NCBI GenBank assembly: GCA_035533295.1 | Contig: DATLUA010000002.1 | Coordinates: 11,323-75,322, forward strand | DNA length: 64,000 nt | Direction of reading: 5' to 3' | DNA from: Elusimicrobiota bacterium | GTDB taxonomy: Bacteria > Elusimicrobiota > Elusimicrobia > UBA1565 > UBA9628 | Shown: in pieces, positions 12,196 through 56,491 of the stretch | Layout of the letters: the number at the start of each line of letters is the position of its first letter | How positions within the stretch are numbered: the first letter of the stretch is position 1 | Notes under the pieces: model-generated | The model's input: only the letters and a program-made list of their open reading frames with translations | Told to the model about the DNA's origin: nothing | Database searches by the model: none | Position numbers and translations under genes: made by a program

Positions 12196-14575
12196 GGCCG
12201 CCTCCACGAGGCGAAGCCTGCACGGCGGCGGGACGCAGGAGCCAATTGAGGCCTTGGCGCGCCTCGCGGTTTTTAGGATCCAACCGAAGAACCCGGCGGT
12301 AGGTTTCCTCGGCGCCTTTTTCATCCCCGGTGATGACATAAGCCACGCCCAAGCCCAAGAGAGCCGATTCGTTCTGGGAATCCAAGGAAACCGCGCGCTT
12401 GAAAGCGTCGAGCGCCCGGCGGCCCTGGCCCAAATCCGCGCGGGCCAGCCCTTCGGCCACCCACCAGTCCGTCTGATCCGGATGGTTGGGCGGTTCGCCT
12501 ATCTGCGGCAGCGTCTCCTGCACCAAGGCCATCCAGCCCACGCCCACAATCCAGAGCCCCATGTCGTTGCCGACCTGCCGCGGCTCGTAGAGCACGTTGG
12601 AGTTGGAAGGATTTTCGCCCGAGCCAGCGCCTCCGCCGCCGGACTGCGCATCGGCGGACCGCGAACCGTCGGAAAGTTCCTGGAGCTTGTTGAAGGTCAG
12701 GTTCATGCCCAGGTGCACGTCGCTTCCATCGGGCGCCTCGGCCACGGTCTTCTGCAAATCCTGCAAAATTCCCGCTATTTGGCGCCGGCGCTCCTCGGGG
12801 CCAGCCGCGCGGATTTGGTAGCTGCGGTTGACGGCCTGGATTCCCTGGGAGGGCCCGTTGACGGCCATCTGCAGCGCGCGCTTCAACTGAGAGGAGCCGA
12901 CTTCCTGGGAAGACGGCTCGACGAGCTGCGGCTTGGGCATGAACACCGCCTGGACCTGCATGATGGCGTCTTGATCCAGGGGAATGCGCTCCAGGTTGCG
13001 CGCGAACACGCTCAAGGGATCATCCGCCGAAAGCTTGGGCATCGCGGCGCCGCCCGCTGACGGAGCCGGGGGCTCGGCGGCCCCGGATGCCGCGCCGGAA
13101 GGCGCGTTGGCGCCCCCGCTCGCGGCGGATTTCCCGGAATAGGCGACGGAAAGCTGCAGGCCCGCGCCGCCTTCCCGCGGCGTCAGGTGGAACGCGCCCG
13201 CGAAAATCTTGCGCGCCTGGGCGAAGCGGCCCTCGAAGAGCAGCACGCGCCCCAAGCGCAGGCGGGCCACCGAATCCCGGTTCTTTAGCTCCAAGGCCTT
13301 CTCAAAGCTCGCGAGAGCCGACTTCAAATCCCCGTCGCTTTCCTGGACCGCGCCCATCTCCAGCCATGCGTCCTCGAACTGCGGATTTAAATCCAGCGAC
13401 TTGCGGAACGCCGCCTCCGCGTCCTGGCTGCGGCCCAGAAGATAATAGAGCGCGCCCAGTTGAAAACGGTAGAGAGGCTCAGTGGGCGCGAGCGCCACCG
13501 CGCGGCGCAAATGTTCGAGCGCGTCGGAAATTTTCCCCAGGCTTTCCTCCAAGGACGCCAAATCCATGAACGAATCCGGGCGGTTCGGGTCGAGCTTGAT
13601 CGCCTTGCGGAACGCGTCGTAGGCTTCCTGATCGCGATCCTCGTAGGCCAGGGAAATGCCCCGAAGGATGTGGAGCTGGGCGCTGTTGGGGTTTAGCTTG
13701 AGGCTGATTTGGTATTCCTTGAGCGATTCATCCACCTCGCCCAGCCAATAATACGCCGCGCCCAGCATCATGTGCGCGTCCGCGTTCTTGGGATCCGCGG
13801 CCACCGCCCGGGAGAACCTCATCGCCGCCGTCGCGTAATGATGGTTTGAAAAATCGTCATAGCCCTGGGAGATATCCTGATTGGACTGCGCCGCCATCAT
13901 CTGATCCCAAACAGTCTGAGGCGGCTGCTCGGTCGGAAGCGCCCGCGACGGCGGCGCGCCCAAGCACAGCAGCACGCCGCCCAAGGCCAGGGCTTGCTTG
14001 ACGCGCGGCAAAATCGCCGCGAGCGCGCGGGCCCGGTGGCTGATGCGGTTTTTTTCCGCCAGGCCCATCTCGGCCAGCGTTTTTTTCTCGTCCGGCGCGT
14101 AGAACACGGGGTCGTAGCCGAAGCCTTCGATGCCACGCGGCTCAATCGTGATTTCACCCTCGAGACGGCCTTCCTCGCAGATGACCGCGCCGTCCGGCCC
14201 GGCCAAGGCCATGACGGTGCGAAAAACCGCGCGCCGAGGCGCCGGAACGCCGCGCAGCTCGGAGAGAAGCTTCTTGATGTTGGCCGCGAAATCGCAACCC
14301 GGCCCCGCGTAGCGCGCCGAATAAACGCCGGGCCGCCCGCCCAAGGCCGCGACCTCCAAGCCCGTGTCGTCGGCCAGGGCCCAGTCCCCGCAAAAACGCG
14401 CGGCCGTTTGCGCCTTCTTGCGCGCGTTGCCTTCGATGGTGGGCTGGTCCTCGTCTATTTCGGGAAAACCGGGGCAATCCTTGGGCAGGGCCAAAGCGAC
14501 GCCCAGCCCCCGCAGGGCTTCCGAAATCTCGCGGACCTTATGGGAATTTCCCGTGGCCAGAAAAAGGCGCCTCAT
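12185..14575 (-). CDS. Fusion protein: RdgB/Ham1 non-canonical purine NTP pyrophosphatase (N-terminal 200 aa) + signal-peptide-like hydrophobic segment + about 560-aa TPR-repeat region
   Basis: N-term LFLATGNSHKVREI..GFGYDPVF..NRISHRARAL is a complete RdgB. There is no stop before ALALGGVLLCLGAPPSRALP, which is followed by many TPR motifs (A..YY.LG..DEA...Y..ALKLNP). Confidence 0.7.
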   Translation of the reverse strand: MRRLFLATGNSHKVREISEALRGLGVALALPKDCPGFPEIDEDQPTIEGNARKKAQTAARFCGDWALADDTGLEVAALGGRPGVYSARYAGPGCDFAANIKKLLSELRGVPAPRRAVFRTVMALAGPDGAVICEEGRLEGEITIEPRGIEGFGYDPVFYAPDEKKTLAEMGLAEKNRISHRARALAAILPRVKQALALGGVLLCLGAPPSRALPTEQPPQTVWDQMMAAQSNQDISQGYDDFSNHHYATAAMRFSRAVAADPKNADAHMMLGAAYYWLGEVDESLKEYQISLKLNPNSAQLHILRGISLAYEDRDQEAYDAFRKAIKLDPNRPDSFMDLASLEESLGKISDALEHLRRAVALAPTEPLYRFQLGALYYLLGRSQDAEAAFRKSLDLNPQFEDAWLEMGAVQESDGDLKSALASFEKALELKNRDSVARLRLGRVLLFEGRFAQARKIFAGAFHLTPREGGAGLQLSVAYSGKSAASGGANAPSGAASGAAEPPAPSAGGAAMPKLSADDPLSVFARNLERIPLDQDAIMQVQAVFMPKPQLVEPSSQEVGSSQLKRALQMAVNGPSQGIQAVNRSYQIRAAGPEERRRQIAGILQDLQKTVAEAPDGSDVHLGMNLTFNKLQELSDGSRSADAQSGGGGAGSGENPSNSNVLYEPRQVGNDMGLWIVGVGWMALVQETLPQIGEPPNHPDQTDWWVAEGLARADLGQGRRALDAFKRAVSLDSQNESALLGLGVAYVITGDEKGAEETYRRVLRLDPKNREARQGLNWLLRPAAVQASPRGGGHGG

Positions 14576-44524: not shown

Positions 44525-46372
44525 TTATTCCCGGCCCAGATGCCGCGCCAGGAATTTCTCGCAGGCTTCGTAGAACTTAAGGCGGTTCTCGGGCCGGGCA
44601 AAACCGTGTCCCTCATCGGGAAAGAGCAGATACTCCACCTCCTTGCCCCTGGCGCGCAGCGCGCCGACGATGGCTTCCGATTCCGCGGCCTTGACCCGCG
44701 GATCGTTGGCGCCCTGCGCGATGAGCATGGGCGCCTGGATTTTATCGGCGAAAAAAAGCGGCGAGCGCGACTCCAGGAATTCCGGCTCCGTTTCCAGGCT
44801 GCCCACCCGCAGATCGAAAACGCGACGCAAGGGCTCCCAATAGGGAGGAACGGACTTAATGAGCGTCGCCAGGTTGGAAGGGCCTACGATGTCCACCGCG
44901 CAGCGATAGAGATTGGGCGTGAACGCGGCGCCGCACAAGGCCGCGTAGCCGCCGTAGGAAGCGCCGTAAATCGCGACACGGTTTTTATCCGCTATCCCTT
45001 CACGAATGGCCCAGAACACCGCGTCGGTCAAGTCGTCCTGCATGCGCGCGCCCCACTCCCGGTCGCCCGCGTGGAGAAAGCGCTTGCCGAAGCCCGCGGA
45101 GCCTCGGAAGTTGACCTGCAGGACAGCGTAGCCCTGGTTAGCGAGCCATTGGATTTCTGGGTGCAATCCCCAGGAATCGCGCGCCCAGGGCCCGCCGTGA
45201 ACATGAAGGACGAGCGGAAGCTTGTGGGGCTCCGCGCCCACCGGGACCGTAAGATAAGCCGTCAGCTTCAAGCCGTCCCGCGCCGCAATTTCCACAGGTC
45301 GCATGGGTGACAAAGCGTAGGATTCCAACGCCGGCCGCGTGCTGAAAAGAAAGGCCGTCGCACGCGTTGCGCGGTCGTATCGGTAATAGGACGCCGGGCG
45401 GCGATCGCTGATGCAGGAGACAATCCAGAGTTGATCCGCGTCATCCCGAGAAGCGAGATGAACGTCTCCTTCAAGCGCCTTGGCCAGAGCCTCGAAATCG
45501 GAGCCGACGTCACCGCCGATGGGCCGCCAAACGAGGCGCTCTTTTTCAAAGGCGCAGGCCTGAACGTTGAATTTGATGGGATGCACGAGAATCCCGGCGA
45601 CGTCCGCTCCCGCGCAGGAGGCCAGAAGCTGCCTCGACTTCCCGTCCAGGCTCATCTCCCACAATTGCGTGGCGTCCGAATCGAGGCTCGATTCCACGTA
45701 GAGCGCGTCGTTGGAGGGCGCAAAGCCGTGCGCGCCGACGGCTTCGTCCGGCCCCCACGATAAGAACGTGCGCCAAGGAGTCCCCGCGCCGTCCTTGACG
45801 CGCAACTCCCCGCCGCCGTCCGGCTTCATGGCGCGGGCGCAGCGCAGGTCAAAGCGGATGTCCGGCAGCCAGCCGATGATATCGCCCGGGTTCTGCTCGA
45901 CAAGGTCCATGGCGCCGGAAGCCACGTTGAGCCTGTAGGCATCGTGAACGCGCGCGTCGCGGCGATTAAGGCCGATGAGCGCGTCCTGGGGAAAATCAGG
46001 GTGGGTGCCGATAATCTGCGCTTGGACGCCGATAAAAGGCGTCAAGTCGGCGCCCATGCCGCCCTGCCAATCCGCGCGGTAGAGATGCCAGTTCTCGTCC
46101 CCGTCCTTGTCCTGGACGTAAAGGAGAGTCCGGCTGTCCCCGCTCCAAAAATAGCTGCGGATTCCGCGGCCGCGATCGCGCGTCACGGGCTTGGCGGCCC
46201 CCTCAAGAGGCCCCGCCCAAATATTCAAGACGCCCTCGTCCTCGGCTAAAAAGGCCAGCTTGGTCCCGTCCGGGGAAATTCGCGGCGAGGCTTTCTCGGG
46301 ATTGCCGAAAATAAGCTCGCGGGGAATCCGGCGGGGTTGTGACGGCTTCGCTAACTCCGGCGTCCGGCTCAT
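44525..46372 (-). CDS. S9 family serine peptidase (prolyl oligopeptidase / acylaminoacyl peptidase-like) with N-terminal beta-propeller
   Basis: ..VHGGPWARDSWG.., ..AIYGASYGGYAAL.. (GxSxGG), and a C-terminal ..DPRV..H catalytic region. Confidence 0.85.
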   Translation of the reverse strand: MSRTPELAKPSQPRRIPRELIFGNPEKASPRISPDGTKLAFLAEDEGVLNIWAGPLEGAAKPVTRDRGRGIRSYFWSGDSRTLLYVQDKDGDENWHLYRADWQGGMGADLTPFIGVQAQIIGTHPDFPQDALIGLNRRDARVHDAYRLNVASGAMDLVEQNPGDIIGWLPDIRFDLRCARAMKPDGGGELRVKDGAGTPWRTFLSWGPDEAVGAHGFAPSNDALYVESSLDSDATQLWEMSLDGKSRQLLASCAGADVAGILVHPIKFNVQACAFEKERLVWRPIGGDVGSDFEALAKALEGDVHLASRDDADQLWIVSCISDRRPASYYRYDRATRATAFLFSTRPALESYALSPMRPVEIAARDGLKLTAYLTVPVGAEPHKLPLVLHVHGGPWARDSWGLHPEIQWLANQGYAVLQVNFRGSAGFGKRFLHAGDREWGARMQDDLTDAVFWAIREGIADKNRVAIYGASYGGYAALCGAAFTPNLYRCAVDIVGPSNLATLIKSVPPYWEPLRRVFDLRVGSLETEPEFLESRSPLFFADKIQAPMLIAQGANDPRVKAAESEAIVGALRARGKEVEYLLFPDEGHGFARPENRLKFYEACEKFLARHLGRE

Positions 46373-46434: not shown

Positions 46435-46511
46435 GGCGCGTTCGTCTAGCGGCCTAGGACATCGCCCTCTCAAGGCGGAGATCACGGGTTCAAATCCCGT
46501 ACGCGCCACCA
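46435..46511 (+). tRNA. tRNA-Glu (anticodon CTC), CCA encoded
   Basis: GGCGCGTTCGTCTAGCGGCCTAGGACATCGCCCTCTCAAGGCGGAGATCACGGGTTCAAATCCCGTACGCGCCACCA. The anticodon loop CTCTCAA has T33 and C34-T35-C36. Confidence 0.75.
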
Positions 46512-46525
46512 GTTTTTCCTCCACG

Positions 46526-49500
46526 CTAAGGATAGCGCCGCCGCCGGCGGGAAGCCGCGGCTTGGTACTGCAGGTGGAACTTCACCGCCTCCAGCGCGGC
46601 CTTGTTGATGAAGGGCCTTGGGTCCGTGAGCATCTTTTCGATTTTGGAGATGGGCCGGCCATTCTCATCGGTCTCGTTCTCCGCCAGGTAGCCCCGGATG
46701 CGGCCCGAGCGCGCCGCCATCTTGGCCCAGGCCTGCGCCGCCTCGTGCTGGGCGAGTTCGCCGTAGCCGGAAGAAACGCCGTCGAGAATCCGGAACACCA
46801 TGGCTTCGTCCTCCACCGCCGAGGACGCGGATACCGCGGACAGGACCATGACCAATTTGGCGACGTTCAAACTCCCGCTGACGGCCAAATAGTGGCCCAA
46901 ATGGCGGCGCAAGTCAGCTTCGGATCCCTCGAAAATGCGCCGGGTCGCCAAGAGTTTTTCCAAGGCCTGTCCCGCCGCGACGCCAAAAAACATGTGCTGC
47001 TCGACAGAGGAAAACCCGTCAATCATGTCTCGCATTTTTTTCGCGGCGGCTTCCGCGTCCCGATCGGAGCTCAAGTCTGCGGCGGCATAGAGCGCGAGCG
47101 CCTCGTCACGCTTCACCTCATGAGAGGAGTCGGCAGGCGGGGCCCCCCATGCGCCCCGCCCGCGCCATGATTGATAAAGTTCCTCCAAGCGTTTCGGAGC
47201 GACGCGCTGCAAATAGCGGTAGAGGACTTTCGCCCGCTCGGCCTGGGCGATGCCGGTGCTGATGGAGTAGCCGGCGCCGGTGACGCCGACCCAATCCTGC
47301 ATCAGCATTTCCTTGAATTCGGGCCCTCCCCAGCGCGCGGCCGCGAGAAAAAGCGCTTCTTTCTCCGTCGTCCGGTTTTGGCGCGCCGCTTGGTAACGGC
47401 GCATGAGCTCGGCTTGCTCCTCCCGCGTCTCGGGCTTCAAAAGCGCGGCCAGGGATTCCGCCAAGGCCAGCCTGAGCGGATTGTAATTATCCCCGCCGAT
47501 GCTGCTGTCTTCGGCTCGCCTGATGGCCTCGGTAACCAACCGCGCGTCTTCGGCCCCTGCGCCCGAACGGGCCAAAATGCCGGCCGCGGCGGCGGCCTCG
47601 GGGTAATACCGGTAAAGCGCGGCCATCTTATCGGAGGAAAGGATTTCCCTGGCCCACTCAACATCGTTTGGCGCGGCGGCGGCCAATGTTTCCGCCGCGG
47701 CGTAGCGCACGCCGGGGCTGCGGGTGTCCTCCTGCGCCAGAAGTCTTATGAGAAACTCCTTAAGTCCGCCCCTATCGTCATTGCTGGCGGGAAAATAAGA
47801 ACCCTTCGGCGTCGAGACCGCCCGAGTCTGGGGCGAGGATGCAGGAGCCTCGGCCGCGGCCGGTTGGCTCTTGAGCAGGATCAAGACCTCGGGAGAAACC
47901 CGCACCTCGGTTCCAGGTTCCGCGGCCAGCTCCAGGGCGAACTGGGCGGCCGCCCGCTCATCGGGGAACGCCACGCCATGATAATGGGGGCCGTCTTTTT
48001 CGCGCACCCAATAGTCCGGCCGGCGGCCGAAGCGCGCGACGATGCGATCGTAATTCTCCGAGGATCCCGTCTGCTCTCCGAAATTAAACAGCACGATTTC
48101 CGCCCTGTCGGCGGGATTCCAAGCCGAATCATGCGGGACGAAGACGGCGATTTTATCCGTGCCGCGCCGCAGGCTGCGCATCAATCCGGGATGGATCAGA
48201 ACCTTGGAAACGCCTTCCGCGCGAATCAGCGCCAGCACGGCGCGCACGGCGGCGCCTGTATCCGGCGCCGAGCCCTTAAGAGTGAACCGCGGGCTGACAT
48301 TGGACGTTTCGCGCATGAAAATGGAGAGGCCGGCGCGGCGCGCCAAATCTTCCACCTCCCTCTTTTTTGAAGCATCATCGCTCAAAACCAAAATAGTGTT
48401 CTCCGCCGTTATATCCGCGGATTCAGAAATCTTTCCCGCGTTCTCAGGGAAAAGAACGGATGGCGCGTCATGGGCATCGGCGGGAGCCGGGAGCGCCGGA
48501 ATCCCGTTGTCCGAACTGGGATTGACGACTCGGGCGTAGACCTCCGGGTGCACGGCCACGGCTGAAATCGCGGCGGAAGCGGCCAGGGCCAGCGCCAAAC
48601 GCGCCGCGTCCCGCGCGCCCGCCAAGGTCGCGAAAGCCTGGTAGGAGGACGGCGCGCCGTGGCGCATCGTCATCACGGGCACGCCGCCAAATCCCGCGGC
48701 CCCAAGCGCCGCGTTCAAGGCCGCGCGCGCGTCGGCGGCGGAAGCGGCGGAGACGAACACGCGGCCTGCGGAAGCCCGCGGGTGGAGAACCGTGTCGAAG
48801 GCCGCCACCTTGGATGCCGGAGAAGACGCCCCGGCGCCGGGCTGCGCCTGCGGCTCCGAAGCATGGCCCTCTTGAGCGGACGTCGAAAAAGAGGAGCCTT
48901 CCGTTCCGGCGTCTGAGTTATCAGCCGCAGGCGGCTCGCTGGACGGCCCGTTTCCAGGAACCTCGATCCAAATGGCAGCTTCTTTTCCCTCGACGAATCG
49001 CGGCAAAACGCCCGTTTCGGGCGAAGGCGCGTTCGGGTCGATGCCGGCTCGCGCTCCGGCCTCATAAAAAATCCGTCCGCCGCCGGCCCTGAAATTATGG
49101 CCCACCACGGTCTGGGGGGCGAAGGCGGCTTTAAGCCGCCGAACGGCCTCCGGAGAAAGAACCCGCGCCGGCGCCCGGATCCGGATCAGGATGCGCCCGG
49201 AACCCATCCGCCAATTCACGTCGATGCTCCGCCCCTCTTCAATTAAGGACTTAATGATAAGAATCGTTTCGCGGTAGGCTTGAGCCGCGGCCAAGCGCTG
49301 GAAGCGCGGCAAGCCGGAACGTCCGGAGTCCTCCCCGTAGGACTGCAGAGCCGCCGTTTCGCTCTCCGAATTCCCGTTGACTATTTCGACGGTCTTCCCG
49401 GGGCCGTTCCACCCAAAGGGAAAATTCTCCGGCATGGGCAGGACCGCGTCCGGGACTTCGTCCTGCGCCGCTTGGGCGGGAGGCTCCTGCGGGTCGCGCA

Positions 49501-51007
49501 CGCGCTCCGCGATCACGTCCGCCAGAGACTTGGCGACTCGGATGTAGGCGATTTCCTTTTGGCGCAGGAGCGCGATGGTTTTTTCCGCGGCCGCCTCAAG
49601 GGAGGAGAATAAATCCGGCGTGGCGACGCGCTCGCTTTGGATAACCGCCGGTTTCCCGATGCCGAAACGTTCCAGAAACGACCGGATGGAATCGGCCGAT
49701 AACGGATCGGCGAAATGGATGTTGACGCTTTTTTCTTCCGTCACGGCGGGGCGAACTCTCAAGCGGCGCAAGAGTTCTTCGGAAAGAGGCATCGGCTCCG
49801 ATGGAGCTAAATCAAGGCGCCGCTCGATGAGCGGCCTCAAGGCGGCGGGAACCTCCAAGCGGGTCAGATGGGGATCGTCAAGCAATTCCAGCGCCCTCTT
49901 GATGGCCGCCTCCCGGTTCGACATGAAAAAATACAGGCGCGGCTCATTGACGTTTTTGCCCCCCCAGCGAGCGAGGTCCTCCTGGGTGCTGAATTGCGCG
50001 TCCAGGCGGTTGCCGGAAAGTTCTTCCTTGACCGCGAGCCGATCCGCCATCAAGATCGGCGGCACGGCCTCGGCCGCCGCGCCCTCATCCGCCGCCGGTG
50101 TTTTTGAAACGGGCGCCTTGGGAAAGGACGGCACGACATCCGGATGAACCGCCACGGAGGAGATAATGTCCAGCCCCGCCAAAGCCACGGCCGCTTTGGC
50201 GGCCTCTTCGGCGTTCTTGAAGTCGATAAACGCCCCGCCGGAACGCAGGTAGGCCGGCGCCGCCGGCAGATTAAGCTTAAGAAGGGCGGCGCCGAGGGCT
50301 TCGCGATCCGCGCCATAAACCCGCAGCCGCCCGGGCAGGCTCTTGGGAGGCGTCAAAGAATCCGCGAGCCTTATTTTGGGCGGCACCGCGCCGATGGAAA
50401 TCGCCTCCGCCAAGGACATTCGAGTTCCCCATGCCGCGGCGGCTTGGCCGATTCCGATTCTAATCCGGTCTTCTTTATGTTGCGCAAGCCTTCTCTCCAG
50501 CGCCGCTATTTTTTCACGTTGCGGCGCGCTCAGCAAAGCTTCGTACAGCTTGAGCCGGCTTAAGGACTTTTCCAGGCCGGCCGCGTTTGCTTTCGCGATT
50601 TTCTCCGGCTCCGAAGCCAATATCCTATCCGCGCTGCGGCGTTCTTGCGCGGCTTTTCGCGTCAACGCTTCCAAAGCGTTCCGGCGGGCGCCCTCGGCCT
50701 CCGGCGCGCTCCCCTCCGCCTTGAGGACCGGGGCCACGGCTTGAGCCAGTTGCGGCGAGAGGCCCCCCGCGCACGAAAGCCCTTCCAAGAGATCACCCGC
50801 GTCCATGCCGTTGAACATCATGCCTTGGCTTTGGGAAATGATTTCAGGAGAAATCAGGGCCGGAACGGCCCCTTCGGCGGAAGAACCTTCCACGGGAGCG
50901 ACTTCCGCGGCCAAGGCGGCGTAAACGCCGGCGCCCGGCGACGCCAGCACGAGGCCCGCGCTCAAAAACAGCGAGAGAGCCCGGATTGCCCGGCTATCTC
51001 GATTCAT
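46526..51007 (-). CDS. Giant secreted Ala-rich protein (1493 aa), no recognised catalytic domain; N-terminal signal region similar to (apparently paralogous with) the upstream giant gene; internal repeated ..AVHP(D/E)V.. modules
   Basis: Intact 4.5-kb ORF starting MNRDSRAIRALSLFLSAGLVLASPGAGVYAALAAE. Overlaps the upstream giant ORF by 14 nt. Confidence 0.65.
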   Translation of the reverse strand: MNRDSRAIRALSLFLSAGLVLASPGAGVYAALAAEVAPVEGSSAEGAVPALISPEIISQSQGMMFNGMDAGDLLEGLSCAGGLSPQLAQAVAPVLKAEGSAPEAEGARRNALEALTRKAAQERRSADRILASEPEKIAKANAAGLEKSLSRLKLYEALLSAPQREKIAALERRLAQHKEDRIRIGIGQAAAAWGTRMSLAEAISIGAVPPKIRLADSLTPPKSLPGRLRVYGADREALGAALLKLNLPAAPAYLRSGGAFIDFKNAEEAAKAAVALAGLDIISSVAVHPDVVPSFPKAPVSKTPAADEGAAAEAVPPILMADRLAVKEELSGNRLDAQFSTQEDLARWGGKNVNEPRLYFFMSNREAAIKRALELLDDPHLTRLEVPAALRPLIERRLDLAPSEPMPLSEELLRRLRVRPAVTEEKSVNIHFADPLSADSIRSFLERFGIGKPAVIQSERVATPDLFSSLEAAAEKTIALLRQKEIAYIRVAKSLADVIAERVRDPQEPPAQAAQDEVPDAVLPMPENFPFGWNGPGKTVEIVNGNSESETAALQSYGEDSGRSGLPRFQRLAAAQAYRETILIIKSLIEEGRSIDVNWRMGSGRILIRIRAPARVLSPEAVRRLKAAFAPQTVVGHNFRAGGGRIFYEAGARAGIDPNAPSPETGVLPRFVEGKEAAIWIEVPGNGPSSEPPAADNSDAGTEGSSFSTSAQEGHASEPQAQPGAGASSPASKVAAFDTVLHPRASAGRVFVSAASAADARAALNAALGAAGFGGVPVMTMRHGAPSSYQAFATLAGARDAARLALALAASAAISAVAVHPEVYARVVNPSSDNGIPALPAPADAHDAPSVLFPENAGKISESADITAENTILVLSDDASKKREVEDLARRAGLSIFMRETSNVSPRFTLKGSAPDTGAAVRAVLALIRAEGVSKVLIHPGLMRSLRRGTDKIAVFVPHDSAWNPADRAEIVLFNFGEQTGSSENYDRIVARFGRRPDYWVREKDGPHYHGVAFPDERAAAQFALELAAEPGTEVRVSPEVLILLKSQPAAAEAPASSPQTRAVSTPKGSYFPASNDDRGGLKEFLIRLLAQEDTRSPGVRYAAAETLAAAAPNDVEWAREILSSDKMAALYRYYPEAAAAAGILARSGAGAEDARLVTEAIRRAEDSSIGGDNYNPLRLALAESLAALLKPETREEQAELMRRYQAARQNRTTEKEALFLAAARWGGPEFKEMLMQDWVGVTGAGYSISTGIAQAERAKVLYRYLQRVAPKRLEELYQSWRGRGAWGAPPADSSHEVKRDEALALYAAADLSSDRDAEAAAKKMRDMIDGFSSVEQHMFFGVAAGQALEKLLATRRIFEGSEADLRRHLGHYLAVSGSLNVAKLVMVLSAVSASSAVEDEAMVFRILDGVSSGYGELAQHEAAQAWAKMAARSGRIRGYLAENETDENGRPISKIEKMLTDPRPFINKAALEAVKFHLQYQAAASRRRRRYP

Positions 51008-54000: not shown

Positions 54001-56285
54001 TCTTCGGCGGCCTCAAGAAAAGGTTTTAGCGGCGGGCGCGCGGAGGCGGCGGCCGGAGCCGAAGAATCCTCGATGGAGCCGAGAAGGAGCCCCAGCGGCG
54101 ACGCGGCAGCCAAGACCGCGTGCGCGCCCAGAAGATGCGGCAGCGCCAAGCCGCCCAGCGCCGCCACGGCGATGAGGCCCAGCACCGTTCCGGCCTTCTT
54201 GGCGGCTTGCTCGCCCTGGGAACCGCCAGTCCGGGCGTCCTGGCCTTTGCGCTTTTCCGTGCGCCAGCGCGACCAAATGTCGCGGCCATCCCAGCGCTGT
54301 TCCATCCAGCGGCGCAGTTCCGCCAGCCTGGCCCGGCCGTCCTGGCTTTCGAAAAGTTTTTGGCGGATGCTTTGGACGTCATCGTCAGGCAGCCCGCGCG
54401 AGTCCGCGTGCAGGGCCTCGGCGGCGCGGCCGATGAACGCATCCTGGAAGCGGTTCCATTTCTCATCGTTGGAAAGCGAATCGAAGCCCTCGGAGCCAAT
54501 AACCTCATCCATCAAGTCGCCGTCCAGGACCTCGGCCATGATGTTCTCGAAGCGCTCGCTGTCGACCTCCGAGCGCAACTCGCCCTTTTCCGCCAAGTCC
54601 GACGCCCAGCGCGCCCAGCCGCCCAGGACGCCGCGCAGGGACTTGACCGCCTCCTCGTTCTGGACCTTCTCGTAGATGCAGTAGTACGCTTGGCTGCAGG
54701 CCAAGGCGATGCCGACCACCGGCAGGCCCAGCCAGAAATAACCGGCCAGGGAAGCGGCCGAAAACGCCGCGAAGCCGAGCCCCCAAGTCAGGCGCTGGAC
54801 GCGGCGCGGAGAAAAGCCGTGGCGGGAAAGCCACGCCAGCGGATTCGCCGGACCTTCGTAGAGCCGCCGGAAAATGCCCTGATAAGCTCCGCTGGGCAGT
54901 TCCGGATTACGCGTCCACGCGAAACGGTAGGCGCGGGTCGGCCACCAACGGATGCCGATCTTGAATCCGTCCGCGTGCGGCAGCGGCGCCAAAAGATTGA
55001 AGGCAGCCAAGGCCAGGTTGACCACGGCCGCGGCCTCGAGCGCGGAGGCCGCCAAGCCTCCGGCGGCGATAACGCCAGTCGAGACCAACGCTAAGCGAAC
55101 ACCCCAGGCCAGCGCCGCCGTGGCGGCGTTCGCCGCGGGCCCGGCTAAGGCGACCTTGGCCGCGTCCCGCTTGGGATCGGCCAGCTTGTTGTAATCGACC
55201 GGGATAGGCTTGGCCCAGCCCAGCAGCAGCGGAACGTGAAGGAAAGTGGAGCTTGCGACAAGGCTCAAGAAAGGCAGCAGGACGGTGCCCCAAGGATCGA
55301 TGTGCTTGAAAGGGTTCAAGCTTCCCTGGCCGAAGCGGCGGGCCGTATCGTCTCCCAAGCGGCGAGCCATGTATAAATGGCCCGTCTCATGGAGAAGAAT
55401 GCCGGACATCAGCGCCGCGCCGTAAAGGACGGCGCCGAGGCTCAGGGCCGCGCCGTGGGTCAGGAAGAGCGCCGCGGCGCCGCCGACCACGGCGGCCGCG
55501 CTCAAAAGCCGGCGCCAGCGGCCTGGGCCATTGATGGAAATTTTTCGCGCCAAACTTCCAAAGGCCGCACGCCGCGGCGCCGGAATCTCCGTATCGCGCT
55601 GGACACCGGAAGCGCCCGCGGACTCAAGAAGCCCGGACGGAAGGCCTCGCGCCGCGTCGGCGCCGGTTTCAACGCCCGCCGGGGCCGCTTTGCCCCAAAG
55701 CCGGCGCGCTTGGGCCACCAAGCCCTGCGCCTGCCTCGCCTTCATGCCGGCCAAACTCTTTTGGGCGGTGCCCAATTTTTCCAGACTCGGGGCGTTCAAG
55801 AAATCCCGGTAGGCGTTCGCCTGAGCGACGGCTCGCTCGAAACTGGAAGTGTCGTCAGTCTGTTTTGCTTGCAGCGCCAGCGCGGGCAGAGCCTCGGCCT
55901 GCGCGCGGGCACGCGCGGCGATCTTAGCCAGTTGCGCCACGGCGGCCGGGGCCTGCTCCCGGGAAGTCCCTGCGGCTTGAACGCCGCGCAGGATGTCCGC
56001 CTCTTCCGGGGTCAGCGACGGCGCGCGCTCAAGGCCGGAAAGCAGCTCGGGAATATTGACGCCGCCAATATTTTCAGAGAACGCGCCCTGGGGCAGAACG
56101 GCGTTGCCCAGCGAAGAAATAGGCGGAAGAGAAAGATTCGCGGGAGCCTCGGCTCCGGTCTCGGGGGCTTCAAAGCCCGCGGCCAGGACGCCGTAGCAGC
56201 CCAGGCCGGGAGACACCAAAACGAGCGAGGATGAAAGCCCCAGGGCCAGAATCTTGACCGCCAGGCGGCGCGACGCAATCTCCAT
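50994..56285 (-). CDS. Giant multidomain protein (about 1760 aa): signal peptide + Ala-rich N-terminal region + YwhC-like M50 (site-2-protease family, COG1994) membrane metalloprotease domain + ClpA/ClpB-like double AAA+ ATPase (D1+D2) + about 380-aa C-terminal extension
   Basis: LLHETGHLYMARRLGDDTARRFGQGSLNPFKHIDPWGTVLLPFLSL..LLGWAKPIPVD (M50/YwhC signature). D1: VLVGKAGVGKT..VVLVIDEVHTF. D2: VGQEEAV..LLTGPTGTGKT..RLDMSEYM..GAPPGYVGFEQGGTLTEAV..VVLFDEIEKA..LQVLADGRLTDGHGRTVSFKNT. The start was set at the Met at 56285 (MEIASRRLAVKIL..). Confidence 0.75.
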   Translation of the reverse strand: MEIASRRLAVKILALGLSSSLVLVSPGLGCYGVLAAGFEAPETGAEAPANLSLPPISSLGNAVLPQGAFSENIGGVNIPELLSGLERAPSLTPEEADILRGVQAAGTSREQAPAAVAQLAKIAARARAQAEALPALALQAKQTDDTSSFERAVAQANAYRDFLNAPSLEKLGTAQKSLAGMKARQAQGLVAQARRLWGKAAPAGVETGADAARGLPSGLLESAGASGVQRDTEIPAPRRAAFGSLARKISINGPGRWRRLLSAAAVVGGAAALFLTHGAALSLGAVLYGAALMSGILLHETGHLYMARRLGDDTARRFGQGSLNPFKHIDPWGTVLLPFLSLVASSTFLHVPLLLGWAKPIPVDYNKLADPKRDAAKVALAGPAANAATAALAWGVRLALVSTGVIAAGGLAASALEAAAVVNLALAAFNLLAPLPHADGFKIGIRWWPTRAYRFAWTRNPELPSGAYQGIFRRLYEGPANPLAWLSRHGFSPRRVQRLTWGLGFAAFSAASLAGYFWLGLPVVGIALACSQAYYCIYEKVQNEEAVKSLRGVLGGWARWASDLAEKGELRSEVDSERFENIMAEVLDGDLMDEVIGSEGFDSLSNDEKWNRFQDAFIGRAAEALHADSRGLPDDDVQSIRQKLFESQDGRARLAELRRWMEQRWDGRDIWSRWRTEKRKGQDARTGGSQGEQAAKKAGTVLGLIAVAALGGLALPHLLGAHAVLAAASPLGLLLGSIEDSSAPAAASARPPLKPFLEAAEDPAVDLSREDKKFLTAMFGQRVLEEIVPDETPVIGRLEEMNKMVPVIASPSGDANGVVLVGKAGVGKTAVLRKMIQAVGISRQQEGEGGTFRLSTLDDRYFLSLDPNQILDRVAQDNSTAILSNLLRILAKFNALQRGRGAKVVLVIDEVHTFFQDTQYGTRIKNLLKKPLERGDVVIVGGTTREEYDKYIRPDEAIKRRLKAVEVPEYDETQSLRALQESRAYYERRYGVKIEPSALKAAAENSHVDSEIFLPGRAFHYLIEALRVADFQSRRDRLSLAIQDKMSELEYAFKRLEEEKAKLFQAESGAAAEEDADEVPSVIDLENAAARLVEDLVTLYRQRQAIPTDGIPNVDEQQVNEKIVEETGVATNQLTLGREDMHKYVEMEQSLNKIVVGQEEAVHVISDAVRRSKSGMHDSEDEPIGVFLLTGPTGTGKTYFAKKLADFLFGSENAMIRLDMSEYMQPHEVAKMTGAPPGYVGFEQGGTLTEAVRKHPYSVVLFDEIEKANPAAWLILLQVLADGRLTDGHGRTVSFKNTIVLMSSNVGMMSLDLGPYEKAYAVLKAQWDASEADASRRADVEAQLSEFGVRMAREIREKAVAATNEAMTGMFPPEFRGRLQYDPIVFNPMTMAMMEKIAPLELQKVRRKVGQRGNELEWTPEVVKLLVHEGYSVDKGARPLRNAIKNLVESPISREILESAAKGGAQPGPKLIRLSVQKGKINVAVEPLPVKPAVKNPPAEAMSREIFDRLVTLVEQAVEEDAEMGLTREILDRWILDEIKSHPAADEAAPAAPPAASEEKSETAAAALAVPTQPQADSLLAQNQAPNMSAQDPVILQGDQETAKEFRLGAARQIKEALEREHYPESVQDALLRSVPSEIESYEGWLKVFLRQAAGGRNSALQVRYRIDPQSAAVAIHANGSLSESEAAFLRAHFTGRVPASAQESLDRAEGGNILKQDSSSRLFFELYRVLSSIPGARLGYSTGASGTDYWIEIPNPAAHESR

Positions 56286-56320
56286 GTAACCGGTATCCTT
56301 GTCTAGTCCAAAATATAACG

Positions 56321-56342
56321 CGGACGCGCGACGGCGCGTCCG
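56321..56342. promoter_or_regulatory. Perfect palindrome CGGACGCGC-GACG-GCGCGTCCG (9-bp arms) 36 nt upstream of the giant operon start; candidate operator
   Basis: Seen directly. It lies in an AT-richer 170-nt intergenic region, with a TATATA-like element upstream and an AAGGATA RBS downstream on the minus strand. Confidence 0.45.
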
Positions 56343-56491
56343 AACCAACGTTATTCTGATATATAGAAGCTTCCTTAAGTAGGGTCGATGGTTCCAGCCC
56401 AAGGCCGGCAATGGGCCTAAGGTTCGGTGGGACTTAAGACCTACGTGAAGATGGGTTTACGACGGCTGCGAAGGGTCCGCAGACGCGGTGA

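Follow-up and report, generated by a model that had tools for sequence, protein, structure and literature searches.

The gene described here lies on the minus strand of a 64,000-nucleotide (nt) stretch of DNA from an Elusimicrobiota bacterium (assembly GCA_035533295.1, contig DATLUA010000002.1, positions 11,323 to 75,322; the whole stretch is referred to as the window). Its product is identical to the NCBI hypothetical protein VNK24_00555 of an Elusimicrobiota metagenome-assembled genome (MAG), and all of the sequence underlying our analysis is MAG-derived. We propose, as a reading which comparison of sequences makes reasonably probable, that VNK24_00555 is the half, encoded in trans and non-catalytic, of a membrane machine specific to Elusimicrobiota, in which an S2P-type M50 protease is combined with a ClpB/ClpA-like double AAA+ ring, both being encoded by the giant gene that it overlaps. 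VNK24_00555 is built of five kinds of part: an N-terminal leader (N-leader), an N-module, six copies of a repeated module (R), one copy of a second module (X) and a HEAT-like C-terminal domain (Table 1). Because these modules are fused to the protease and motor in other species, and because no conserved accessory gene accompanies the family, the protein would be one half of a self-contained machine.

Fused and split forms of an M50-AAA+ protein

The related loci were collected in a scan that took one genome per species and used a family-specific stretch of the giant gene as the query. This gave 49 loci, 46 of them titled Elusimicrobia or Elusimicrobiota and three titled 'bacterium' only. At 27 of the 49, a profile of the C-terminal domain and an M50-specific profile match within the same stop-free open reading frame (ORF), encoding single proteins of 2288-3365 amino acids (aa); in the proteins P0010 (2961 aa) and P0013, AAA+, X, R and C-terminal domain also lie in one chain. 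Fused proteins of type A (17 loci) have the order N-leader, M50, one to 11 R, the AAA+ domains D1 and D2, X, C-terminal domain; those of type B (7 proteins) have N-leader, M50, D1, D2, X, a mixture of X and R, and the C-terminal domain. R copy number varies from 0 to 11 among the fused proteins. Around the family no conserved accessory gene was found: an S9 peptidase gene and other flanking genes are syntenic within the window's clade only, and the other neighbour clusters are housekeeping synteny or shadow ORFs. In the window, the S9 gene and VNK24_00555 belong to separate operons, since a convergent tRNA-Glu gene lies between them.

The two-gene form of the window's clade was seen only in the window and in the loci L005, L001/L006 and L002/L003. 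In gene 1, N-leader and N-module precede M50, AAA+ and X. In gene 2, which is VNK24_00555 in the window, a second copy of both leads into R1-3, X and R4-6, with the HEAT-like domain at the end. As the split clade is nested inside the fused type B in a neighbour-joining tree, the split form is, by this phylogeny, derived from the fused form. About 215 N-terminal aa of VNK24_00555 have no counterpart at that position in the fused proteins; simple fission would not give gene 2 such a duplicated N-terminus but tandem duplication with complementary deletions would, and the split probably arose in this way.

An independent second two-gene form occurs at the locus L032 (8585-10702 and 10839-19217), where both genes again carry an N-leader. 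The first, L032a, encodes N-leader, N-module and M50; the second, L032b, encodes its own N-leader and N-module, a degenerate hairpin of the transmembrane (TM) helices TM1 and TM2 that is without HExxH (..FMLGEVGGG), four R, D1, D2, X and the C-terminal domain. This pair looks like the product of duplication and then complementary degeneration. Parts of the system also occur alone: at L055 (2-9021 of CAZMIB010000039.1), five tandem genes with 4-nt overlaps encode R with C-terminal domain, R with C-terminal domain, four R, three R and three R, each gene having a signal-peptide-like N-terminus and a Pro/Ala/Leu-rich stretch, and the same MAG has a complete fused giant (L011). L054 is another locus of stand-alone R or R-C-terminal-domain proteins with signal-peptide-like N-termini.

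Some members of the family are interrupted. On a 3.1-Mb contig (L017; CBDIQC010000001.1) a reading frame that is otherwise open throughout has one in-frame TGA, at 13790-13792, between its M50-AAA+-X part and its R/C-terminal part; an error of sequencing, a recently formed pseudogene or read-through could each account for it. The same genome also has a second, frameshifted copy (L019), and the locus L048 is frameshifted too.

Gene order and the 14-nt overlap of the giant's stop with the start of gene 2 are kept in every orthologous locus. No Shine-Dalgarno-like sequence is evident at this overlap, which suggests that translation of the two genes is coupled. A preliminary description of this DNA had proposed a dedicated partner, to be checked by co-occurrence with the M50-AAA+ gene. 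That proposal has held up well: gene 2 always lies directly 3' of the M50-AAA+ gene, in constant order and with the overlap, and elsewhere the two are the same polypeptide, with the C-terminal domain fused to the AAA+ motor at the 27 loci and in P0010 and P0013. By such comparison, its status as a dedicated partner is supported as well as genomics allows.

The giant itself has the order N-leader, N-module, M50, a post-M50 soluble domain of ~160 aa, a TM hairpin, D1, D2, ClpB D2-small and X (aa 1610-1763). Its mechanically called ORF begins at TTG 56411 and so includes an extra 56285-56411; alignment of the family's N-leaders backs the ATG at 56285 (MEIASRR...). The M50 domain (PF02163, 5.2e-8) has both of the motifs that define M50/S2P proteases, HETGH (HExxH at aa 299) and NLLAPLPHADG (LDG-type, NxxPxxxxDG), and its profile aligns to RseP, aq_1964 and mjS2P. 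The motor part matches AAA_2 (2.8e-51) and ClpB_D2-small (7.3e-16), as is characteristic of Hsp100/Clp double-ring proteins, but its score is far below the ClpB/ClpA/ClpV equivalog cut-offs (395.9 vs 1232 bits) and it is therefore the orthologue of none of these three. Similarity to the M50 region of the giant also brought up P0006 and P0008, which are fusions of ~1180 aa between M50 and a subtilisin-type Peptidase_S8.

VNK24_00555 is a functional gene, as its identity to the NCBI entry, its relatives and its substitution pattern indicate. Besides itself, two full-length relatives were found among 5.8 billion clusters, and the ORF is also unbroken in four other assemblies (L001, L002, L003 and L005). 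The ratio of non-synonymous to synonymous substitutions (dN/dS) against three orthologues is 0.22-0.30 overall, which with the intact ORFs answers an earlier concern that resequencing might reveal frameshifts. By region, dN/dS falls to its lowest values, 0.12-0.20, in the C-terminal domain and reaches its highest, 0.4 to >1, in the Ala/Pro-rich linkers; all of the modules are under purifying selection.

The protein is indeed Ala-rich (17.7% of residues), as first described, and also belongs to no recognisable family: sequence searches of Pfam (at curated thresholds), NCBIfam, PADLOC and PDB gave no match and no enzymatic signature. The absence of a Walker motif, which had also been claimed, stands as regards a conserved P-loop but not to the letter. 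A string that fits GxxGxGK[ST], GWNGPGKT (aa 532-539; 49391-49414, minus strand), is found just N-terminal of the X module and is kept in P0002; the orthologue P0003 has unrelated sequence in its place, and for this reason we reject it as a true Walker A and regard it as probably fortuitous. VNK24_00555 lacks the conserved Walker A and Walker B of P-loop NTPases, and no AAA or NTPase profile matches it.

Module families of VNK24_00555

The N-leader (MNRDSRAIRA-LSLFLSAGLVLA-SPGAGVYA/ALAAE) reads like a Sec signal peptide, with a basic n-region, an h-region of 13-15 aa and small residues at -3/-1. Across 22 diverged members of the family its S-P-G is 80-90% conserved and its A-x-A positions ~80%, and both persist across lineages whose remaining N-module is unalignable. 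The N-module that follows is paralogous to that of the giant; the two N-termini share 31% identity over 198 aa (BLASTP, E=7e-10), jackhmmer and hidden Markov model (HMM) matches confirm the module, and the N-module of VNK24_00555 is nearest to those of its own clade's giants. Thus the N-terminal likeness to the adjacent gene, originally noticed over 40 residues, is real and extends over ~200, and the suggestion of a duplicated module common to the two neighbours proves correct.

In the N-modules of type-A giants (e.g. L044, L030, L028, L046) the motif G-P-R-W-V-[KE] is present in two or three copies within the module's basic half, and may be a membrane-interface or binding motif. Its last copy (..PLWVKVVAPL..) is the start of TM1, where the giant of the window has GPGRWRRLL.

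The two duplicated segments of about 60 aa that were picked out in the preliminary description lie within R1 and R4. They are significantly related, by local alignment (score 85, z=9.2, with none of 300 shuffles as high) and by hhalign (probability 93.6%, E=2.1e-7, 72 columns), so that the similarity survives the alignment statistics; the unit, however, is 70-85 aa long and is present in six copies, not two. Plain BLASTP self-comparison of the protein gave no off-diagonal match, and the repeats were recovered by module-wise alignment and profiles. The divergent R2 is tied to the family through R3 and through the P0003 copy of R2 (family HMM 0.003). Iterative searches seeded with R4 found ~119 instances of R in 45 ORFs of the related loci.

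The AF2 model of R4 (pLDDT 85.5, pTM 0.76, from an alignment of 18 rows) has the b-a-b-b-a-b order of the ACT-domain fold. The R family has no Pfam or PDB sequence match: none of 54 copies matches Pfam ACT, scattered noise alone was obtained (SPOR 0.0026, RRM_occluded 0.0049), and neither ACT profile membership nor the ACT ligand-binding loop was found. The BMC, CutA and RRM folds score nearly as high as ACT, so that the fold class alone is assignable. Two more specific identities were considered and rejected: SPOR (PF05036), which one of the 54 copies matches at E=0.0026 and of which there is no structure among the fold matches listed; and the subtilisin propeptide (I9), which has no profile support, the fold matches being generic ferredoxin/ACT-like.

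The X module is shared by both genes of the pair. In a jackhmmer search from a P0013 seed, the X of VNK24_00555 was found at 2.5e-24 and the C-terminal domain of the giant at 4.5e-25, along with multiple copies in P0010, P0012 and P0013. An AF2 model of moderate confidence (pLDDT 66.6; the alignments behind the two models are shallow, at 18 and 10 rows) shows the Bergerat a/b fold of GHKL/HATPase_c proteins, of the RsbW-SpoIIAB subgroup. The conserved columns of the X family include no N box, G1 box (DxGxG) or G2 box, and there is no HATPase, other Pfam or PDB sequence match. Since the conserved N-box Asn, DxGxG and the G2 box are missing, X is probably a pseudo-kinase, serving as a non-catalytic binding module.

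The HEAT-like C-terminal domain is the most conserved part of VNK24_00555 and the only part for which distant homologues were found among 1.84 billion representatives; in a homologue search with the alignment of this domain, P0012 alone appeared among the matches listed. Among eight members, HEAT_2 matches four (4.1e-6 at best) and HEAT three, all below the cut-offs of these profiles for HEAT/ARM-type alpha-solenoid repeats; VNK24_00555 itself matches HEAT alone, at 0.043, also below the cut-off.

Table 1. Positions in the window of VNK24_00555, its modules and the neighbouring genes
Feature	Residues (aa)	Positions	Strand	Remarks
VNK24_00555 gene	1493 aa	46526..51007	minus	ATG start; stop TAG at 46526-46528
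N-leader	1-35	50903..51007	minus	basic n-region, ~13-aa hydrophobic stretch, S-P-G, V-Y-A/A-L-A
N-module	36-215	50363..50902	minus	paralogous to giant gene aa 40-214
R1	222-300	50108..50344	minus	family HMM 1e-12; alignment and hhalign to R4
R2	328-402	49802..50026	minus	divergent copy; family HMM 0.04; hhalign to R3 E=1e-4
R3	424-506	49490..49738	minus	family HMM 5.5e-4, near full length
X module	538-690	48938..49396	minus	RsbW/SpoIIAB-like GHKL fold, without ATP-binding motifs
R4	744-830	48518..48778	minus	family HMM 8e-20
R5	866-952	48152..48412	minus	family HMM 1.8e-7; not in orthologue P0003
R6	962-1048	47864..48124	minus	family HMM 1.5e-15; not in orthologue P0003
HEAT-like C-terminal domain	1076-1493	46529..47782	minus	~420 aa, basic tail RRRRRYP at end
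Partner giant gene	1763 aa	50994..56285	minus	from ATG 56285
14-nt overlap, giant stop/VNK24_00555 start		50994..51007	minus	ATGAATCGAGATAG; also in L001 (10001-10014) and L002 (1503-1516)
tRNA-Glu(CTC)		46435-46511	plus	convergent to VNK24_00555, 15 nt past its stop codon
S9 prolyl-oligopeptidase gene		44525-46372	minus	beyond tRNA-Glu from VNK24_00555

Possible cytoplasmic tether or exported arm

On which side of the membrane VNK24_00555 works is a finely balanced matter. We lean, at little better than even, towards its acting on the cytoplasmic, AAA+ side with the leader as a tether to the membrane or to M50, a reading that the sequences support only slightly better than export. No hydrophobic segment follows AAA+ in any fused protein, and type A proteins carry their R modules after the final membrane hairpin and ahead of D1; this puts R, X and the C-terminal domain on the ATP side. 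The orientation of the M50 domain is fixed by the alignment of its profile to RseP and mjS2P, which covers HExxH, the re-entrant loop and the LDG helix. The HExxH helix (TM2) of the giant follows a second hydrophobic helix (TM1) and a tight turn, which is the arrangement of the six-TM SpoIVFB/mjS2P core (PMC11486902).

The charge distribution, analysed like hydrophobicity with simple scripts of our own, points the same way: TM1 is preceded by a Trp that is invariant and by 5-7 clustered basic residues, and the remaining strongly basic loops are all on the AAA+ side. A second membrane crossing hidden in the N-module was also looked for, and in the window's clade neither hydrophobicity scale gave a candidate. 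An inverted M50 topology, which would reconcile the arrangement with an exported N-module, we reject, because in L032b the AAA+ part comes directly after the TM1-TM2-like hairpin and because the basic loops would then be outside. The label 'secreted', which the preliminary description had attached to the protein, is thus not established: the leader is Sec-like, but homologous modules are on the AAA+ side in all fused relatives and the topology of M50 speaks for a cytoplasmic end of the N-module.

A number of observations weigh against a cytoplasmic location, and these are also what favours an exported partner, in which the leader would be a true Sec signal peptide or anchor, the two N-modules would pair in the periplasm and a 1450-aa arm of R, X and HEAT would lie outside, tethered to the N-terminus of the giant. 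The leader has the canonical n-h-c organisation, with the full Sec feature set, a helix breaker and the conserved A-x-A, and it resembles other signal peptides in the window. The residues after it are acidic (net charge -3 and -4, aa 26-75), which favours export, and family-wide the leader is followed by a Pro/Ala/Leu-rich region like periplasmic linkers. The stand-alone R and R-C-terminal-domain proteins of L054 and L055 all have signal-peptide-like N-termini, and the modules may thus also exist outside the cytoplasm. The weak link of the cytoplasmic argument is TM1, which is marginally hydrophobic (+2.4 to +3.8 on a crude biological scale): if it were not membrane-spanning, VNK24_00555 in its entirety, like the N-module, would be periplasmic, and the closest small M50 relative, P0005, has one TM before HExxH, so that TM1 could be a non-spanning add-on.

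Export would, however, put into the periplasm modules that are cytoplasmic in the 27 fused relatives, would leave the split giant without the otherwise universal C-terminal domain and would force the conserved Trp and basic cluster outside the membrane, while the rescue of an inverted M50 is excluded by L032b and the charge distribution. A GHKL anti-sigma-like fold outside the cytoplasm would also be unusual. We consider an exported partner to be possible, with about one chance in three in its favour. Under either reading the two homologous N-modules share one compartment, as a docking or address module requires.

Cys content was considered as a marker of compartment and is uninformative, as the whole family, the AAA+ rings included, is almost Cys-free. 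VNK24_00555 has one Cys in 1493 aa and the giant three in 1763, where the average over 18 other ORFs of the window is 1.14%. Among the homologues (loci L007-L053), most lack Cys in the ~687-aa AAA+ region and likewise in their R arrays, which reach 1272 aa; the C-terminal tails have 0-1 in most cases and four in L011. The conserved exception is a C-x5-C pair that closes the M50 domain (..LACSQAYYCIYEK..).

We propose the following working scheme. The overlap, by coupling translation, would cause the two halves to be made in coupled amounts, and the duplicated N-leader and N-module would give both polypeptides the same address, so that the detached arm could dock beside, or co-assemble with, the protease-motor subunit. 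The ACT-like R, RsbW-like X and HEAT-like modules would bind proteins or ligands, for client recruitment, regulation or scaffolding and not for catalysis. ClpA and ClpB thread from D1 to D2. The same direction here would put M50 at the entry side and the X/HEAT arm at the exit side, which would suit a machine that pulls cut segments out of the membrane. A rigid coupling within it is, however, made less likely by the variability of the R arrays that separate D1 from the membrane.

By analogy, the leader might, instead of being a generic export signal, be a tag that addresses proteins to a kind of regulated intramembrane proteolysis which is ATP-driven and peculiar to the phylum: the protease-motor, the split arm and the stand-alone R/HEAT paralogues would all insert it at or into the cleft of M50 and have it cut there (compare SpoIVFB and Pro-sigmaK), the Hsp100 rings would extract or remodel the product, and the arm with its RsbW-, ACT- and HEAT-like modules would keep a regulator, for example a sigma factor, bound until it is let go. 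We offer this as a speculation that is more probably wrong than right by a wide margin; were it true, the split form in the window would be a natural two-component version in which to dissect the mechanism.

A 'substrate' role, the other half of the preliminary suggestion, is less likely than that of a subunit because the same modules are integral to the enzyme in other species. In such a case the leader would be a Pro-sigmaK-like pro-sequence cut in the M50 cleft, perhaps with the help of AAA+, and VNK24_00555 would be a client that is released or destroyed. S2P enzymes do cleave N-in hydrophobic segments with helix breakers, the S-P-G and small residues of the leader are kept where the rest of the N-module is unalignable, and such a leader stands on every separate polypeptide of the system; against this, the modules are permanently attached to the enzyme in most species and the giant itself carries a leader. 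We therefore think it very improbable that VNK24_00555 is a mere client, while noting that cleavage of this kind is compatible with a subunit role as an added regulatory step. That the two-gene form is an artefact, be it a fused gene divided by frameshift or mis-assembly, or a decaying pseudogene, such as the broken L048, L019 and L017 might suggest, is effectively refuted by five independent assemblies that agree in the split, the start codon, the 14-nt overlap and the duplicated N-module, by the first ~215 aa of gene 2, which are without counterpart there in the fused proteins, and by the dN/dS of 0.22-0.30.

Relation to known proteases, motors and adaptors

Full-text literature searches turned up no account of M50 fused to AAA+, nor of the modules of VNK24_00555. 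To our knowledge, the peptidase that is joined to the motor in every characterised AAA+ protease is soluble and self-compartmentalised. Fusion of the motor to an intramembrane S2P, phylum-wide and accompanied by three or four domain families not recognised before, would amount to a new route to the proteolysis of membrane or signalling proteins. VNK24_00555 is informative in this respect, as it shows which parts of the system are detachable, that the N-leader is always retained on the detached part and that it is the HEAT-like domain which invariably accompanies the motor; the contrast of a textbook signal peptide with a cytoplasmic architecture is also a concrete question of membrane topology. 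The new families (R, X, the C-terminal domain and the N-module) can serve to annotate several hundred kilobases of Elusimicrobia sequence that is now 'hypothetical'.

Known families do not admit VNK24_00555 at the sequence level, and we see in the system, as far as its sequences tell, a membrane AAA+ protease with an accessory arm made from undescribed domain families. The closest functional analogue of the whole is FtsH, in which membrane anchor, AAA+ unfoldase and zinc metalloprotease are also combined in one polypeptide, and as a hexamer, which we presume here. In FtsH, however, a soluble M41 chamber is C-terminal to one ring, whereas here an intramembrane S2P/M50 domain is N-terminal to a two-ring Hsp100-type motor; and FtsH has no counterpart of the R/X/HEAT arm. 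In addition, as many as 11 R modules can stand here between membrane domain and D1, and because so many can separate the two, tight coaxial coupling is not conserved.

Among M50 proteases, SpoIVFB and its substrate Pro-sigmaK are the closest precedent for an N-terminal hydrophobic docking segment. SpoIVFB shares the TM1-turn-TM2(HExxH) hairpin, the re-entrant loop, the LDG helix and a cytoplasmic domain after the core, and in Pro-sigmaK, as in VNK24_00555, a hydrophobic N-terminal segment is carried by a large soluble protein and could by analogy be an element for docking or cleavage. The differences are that the system described here has no CBS domain, that the leader is also present on the protease itself and that sequence similarity to SpoIVFB is limited to generic M50 motifs.

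The modules of the arm also have partial parallels. R shares its fold class with ACT and ferredoxin-like domains, but occurs in arrays of 1-11 copies and has a terminal signature of its own, V-x-V-H-P-E/D-V. The closest folds to X are those of the anti-sigma-type GHKL serine kinases RsbW, SpoIIAB and SiaB; X, in contrast, has no Pfam HATPase_c match or ATP-binding boxes, and no STAS or sigma partner of it was identified. In its proposed role, as a non-enzymatic associate of a double-ring AAA+ motor that sets its clients, VNK24_00555 would resemble the adaptors and cofactors of Hsp100-type motors and their kin (ClpS, MecA and the p97 cofactors). These have no homology to it, and VNK24_00555 differs from them in deriving from the motor's own tail and in having a membrane-directed leader.

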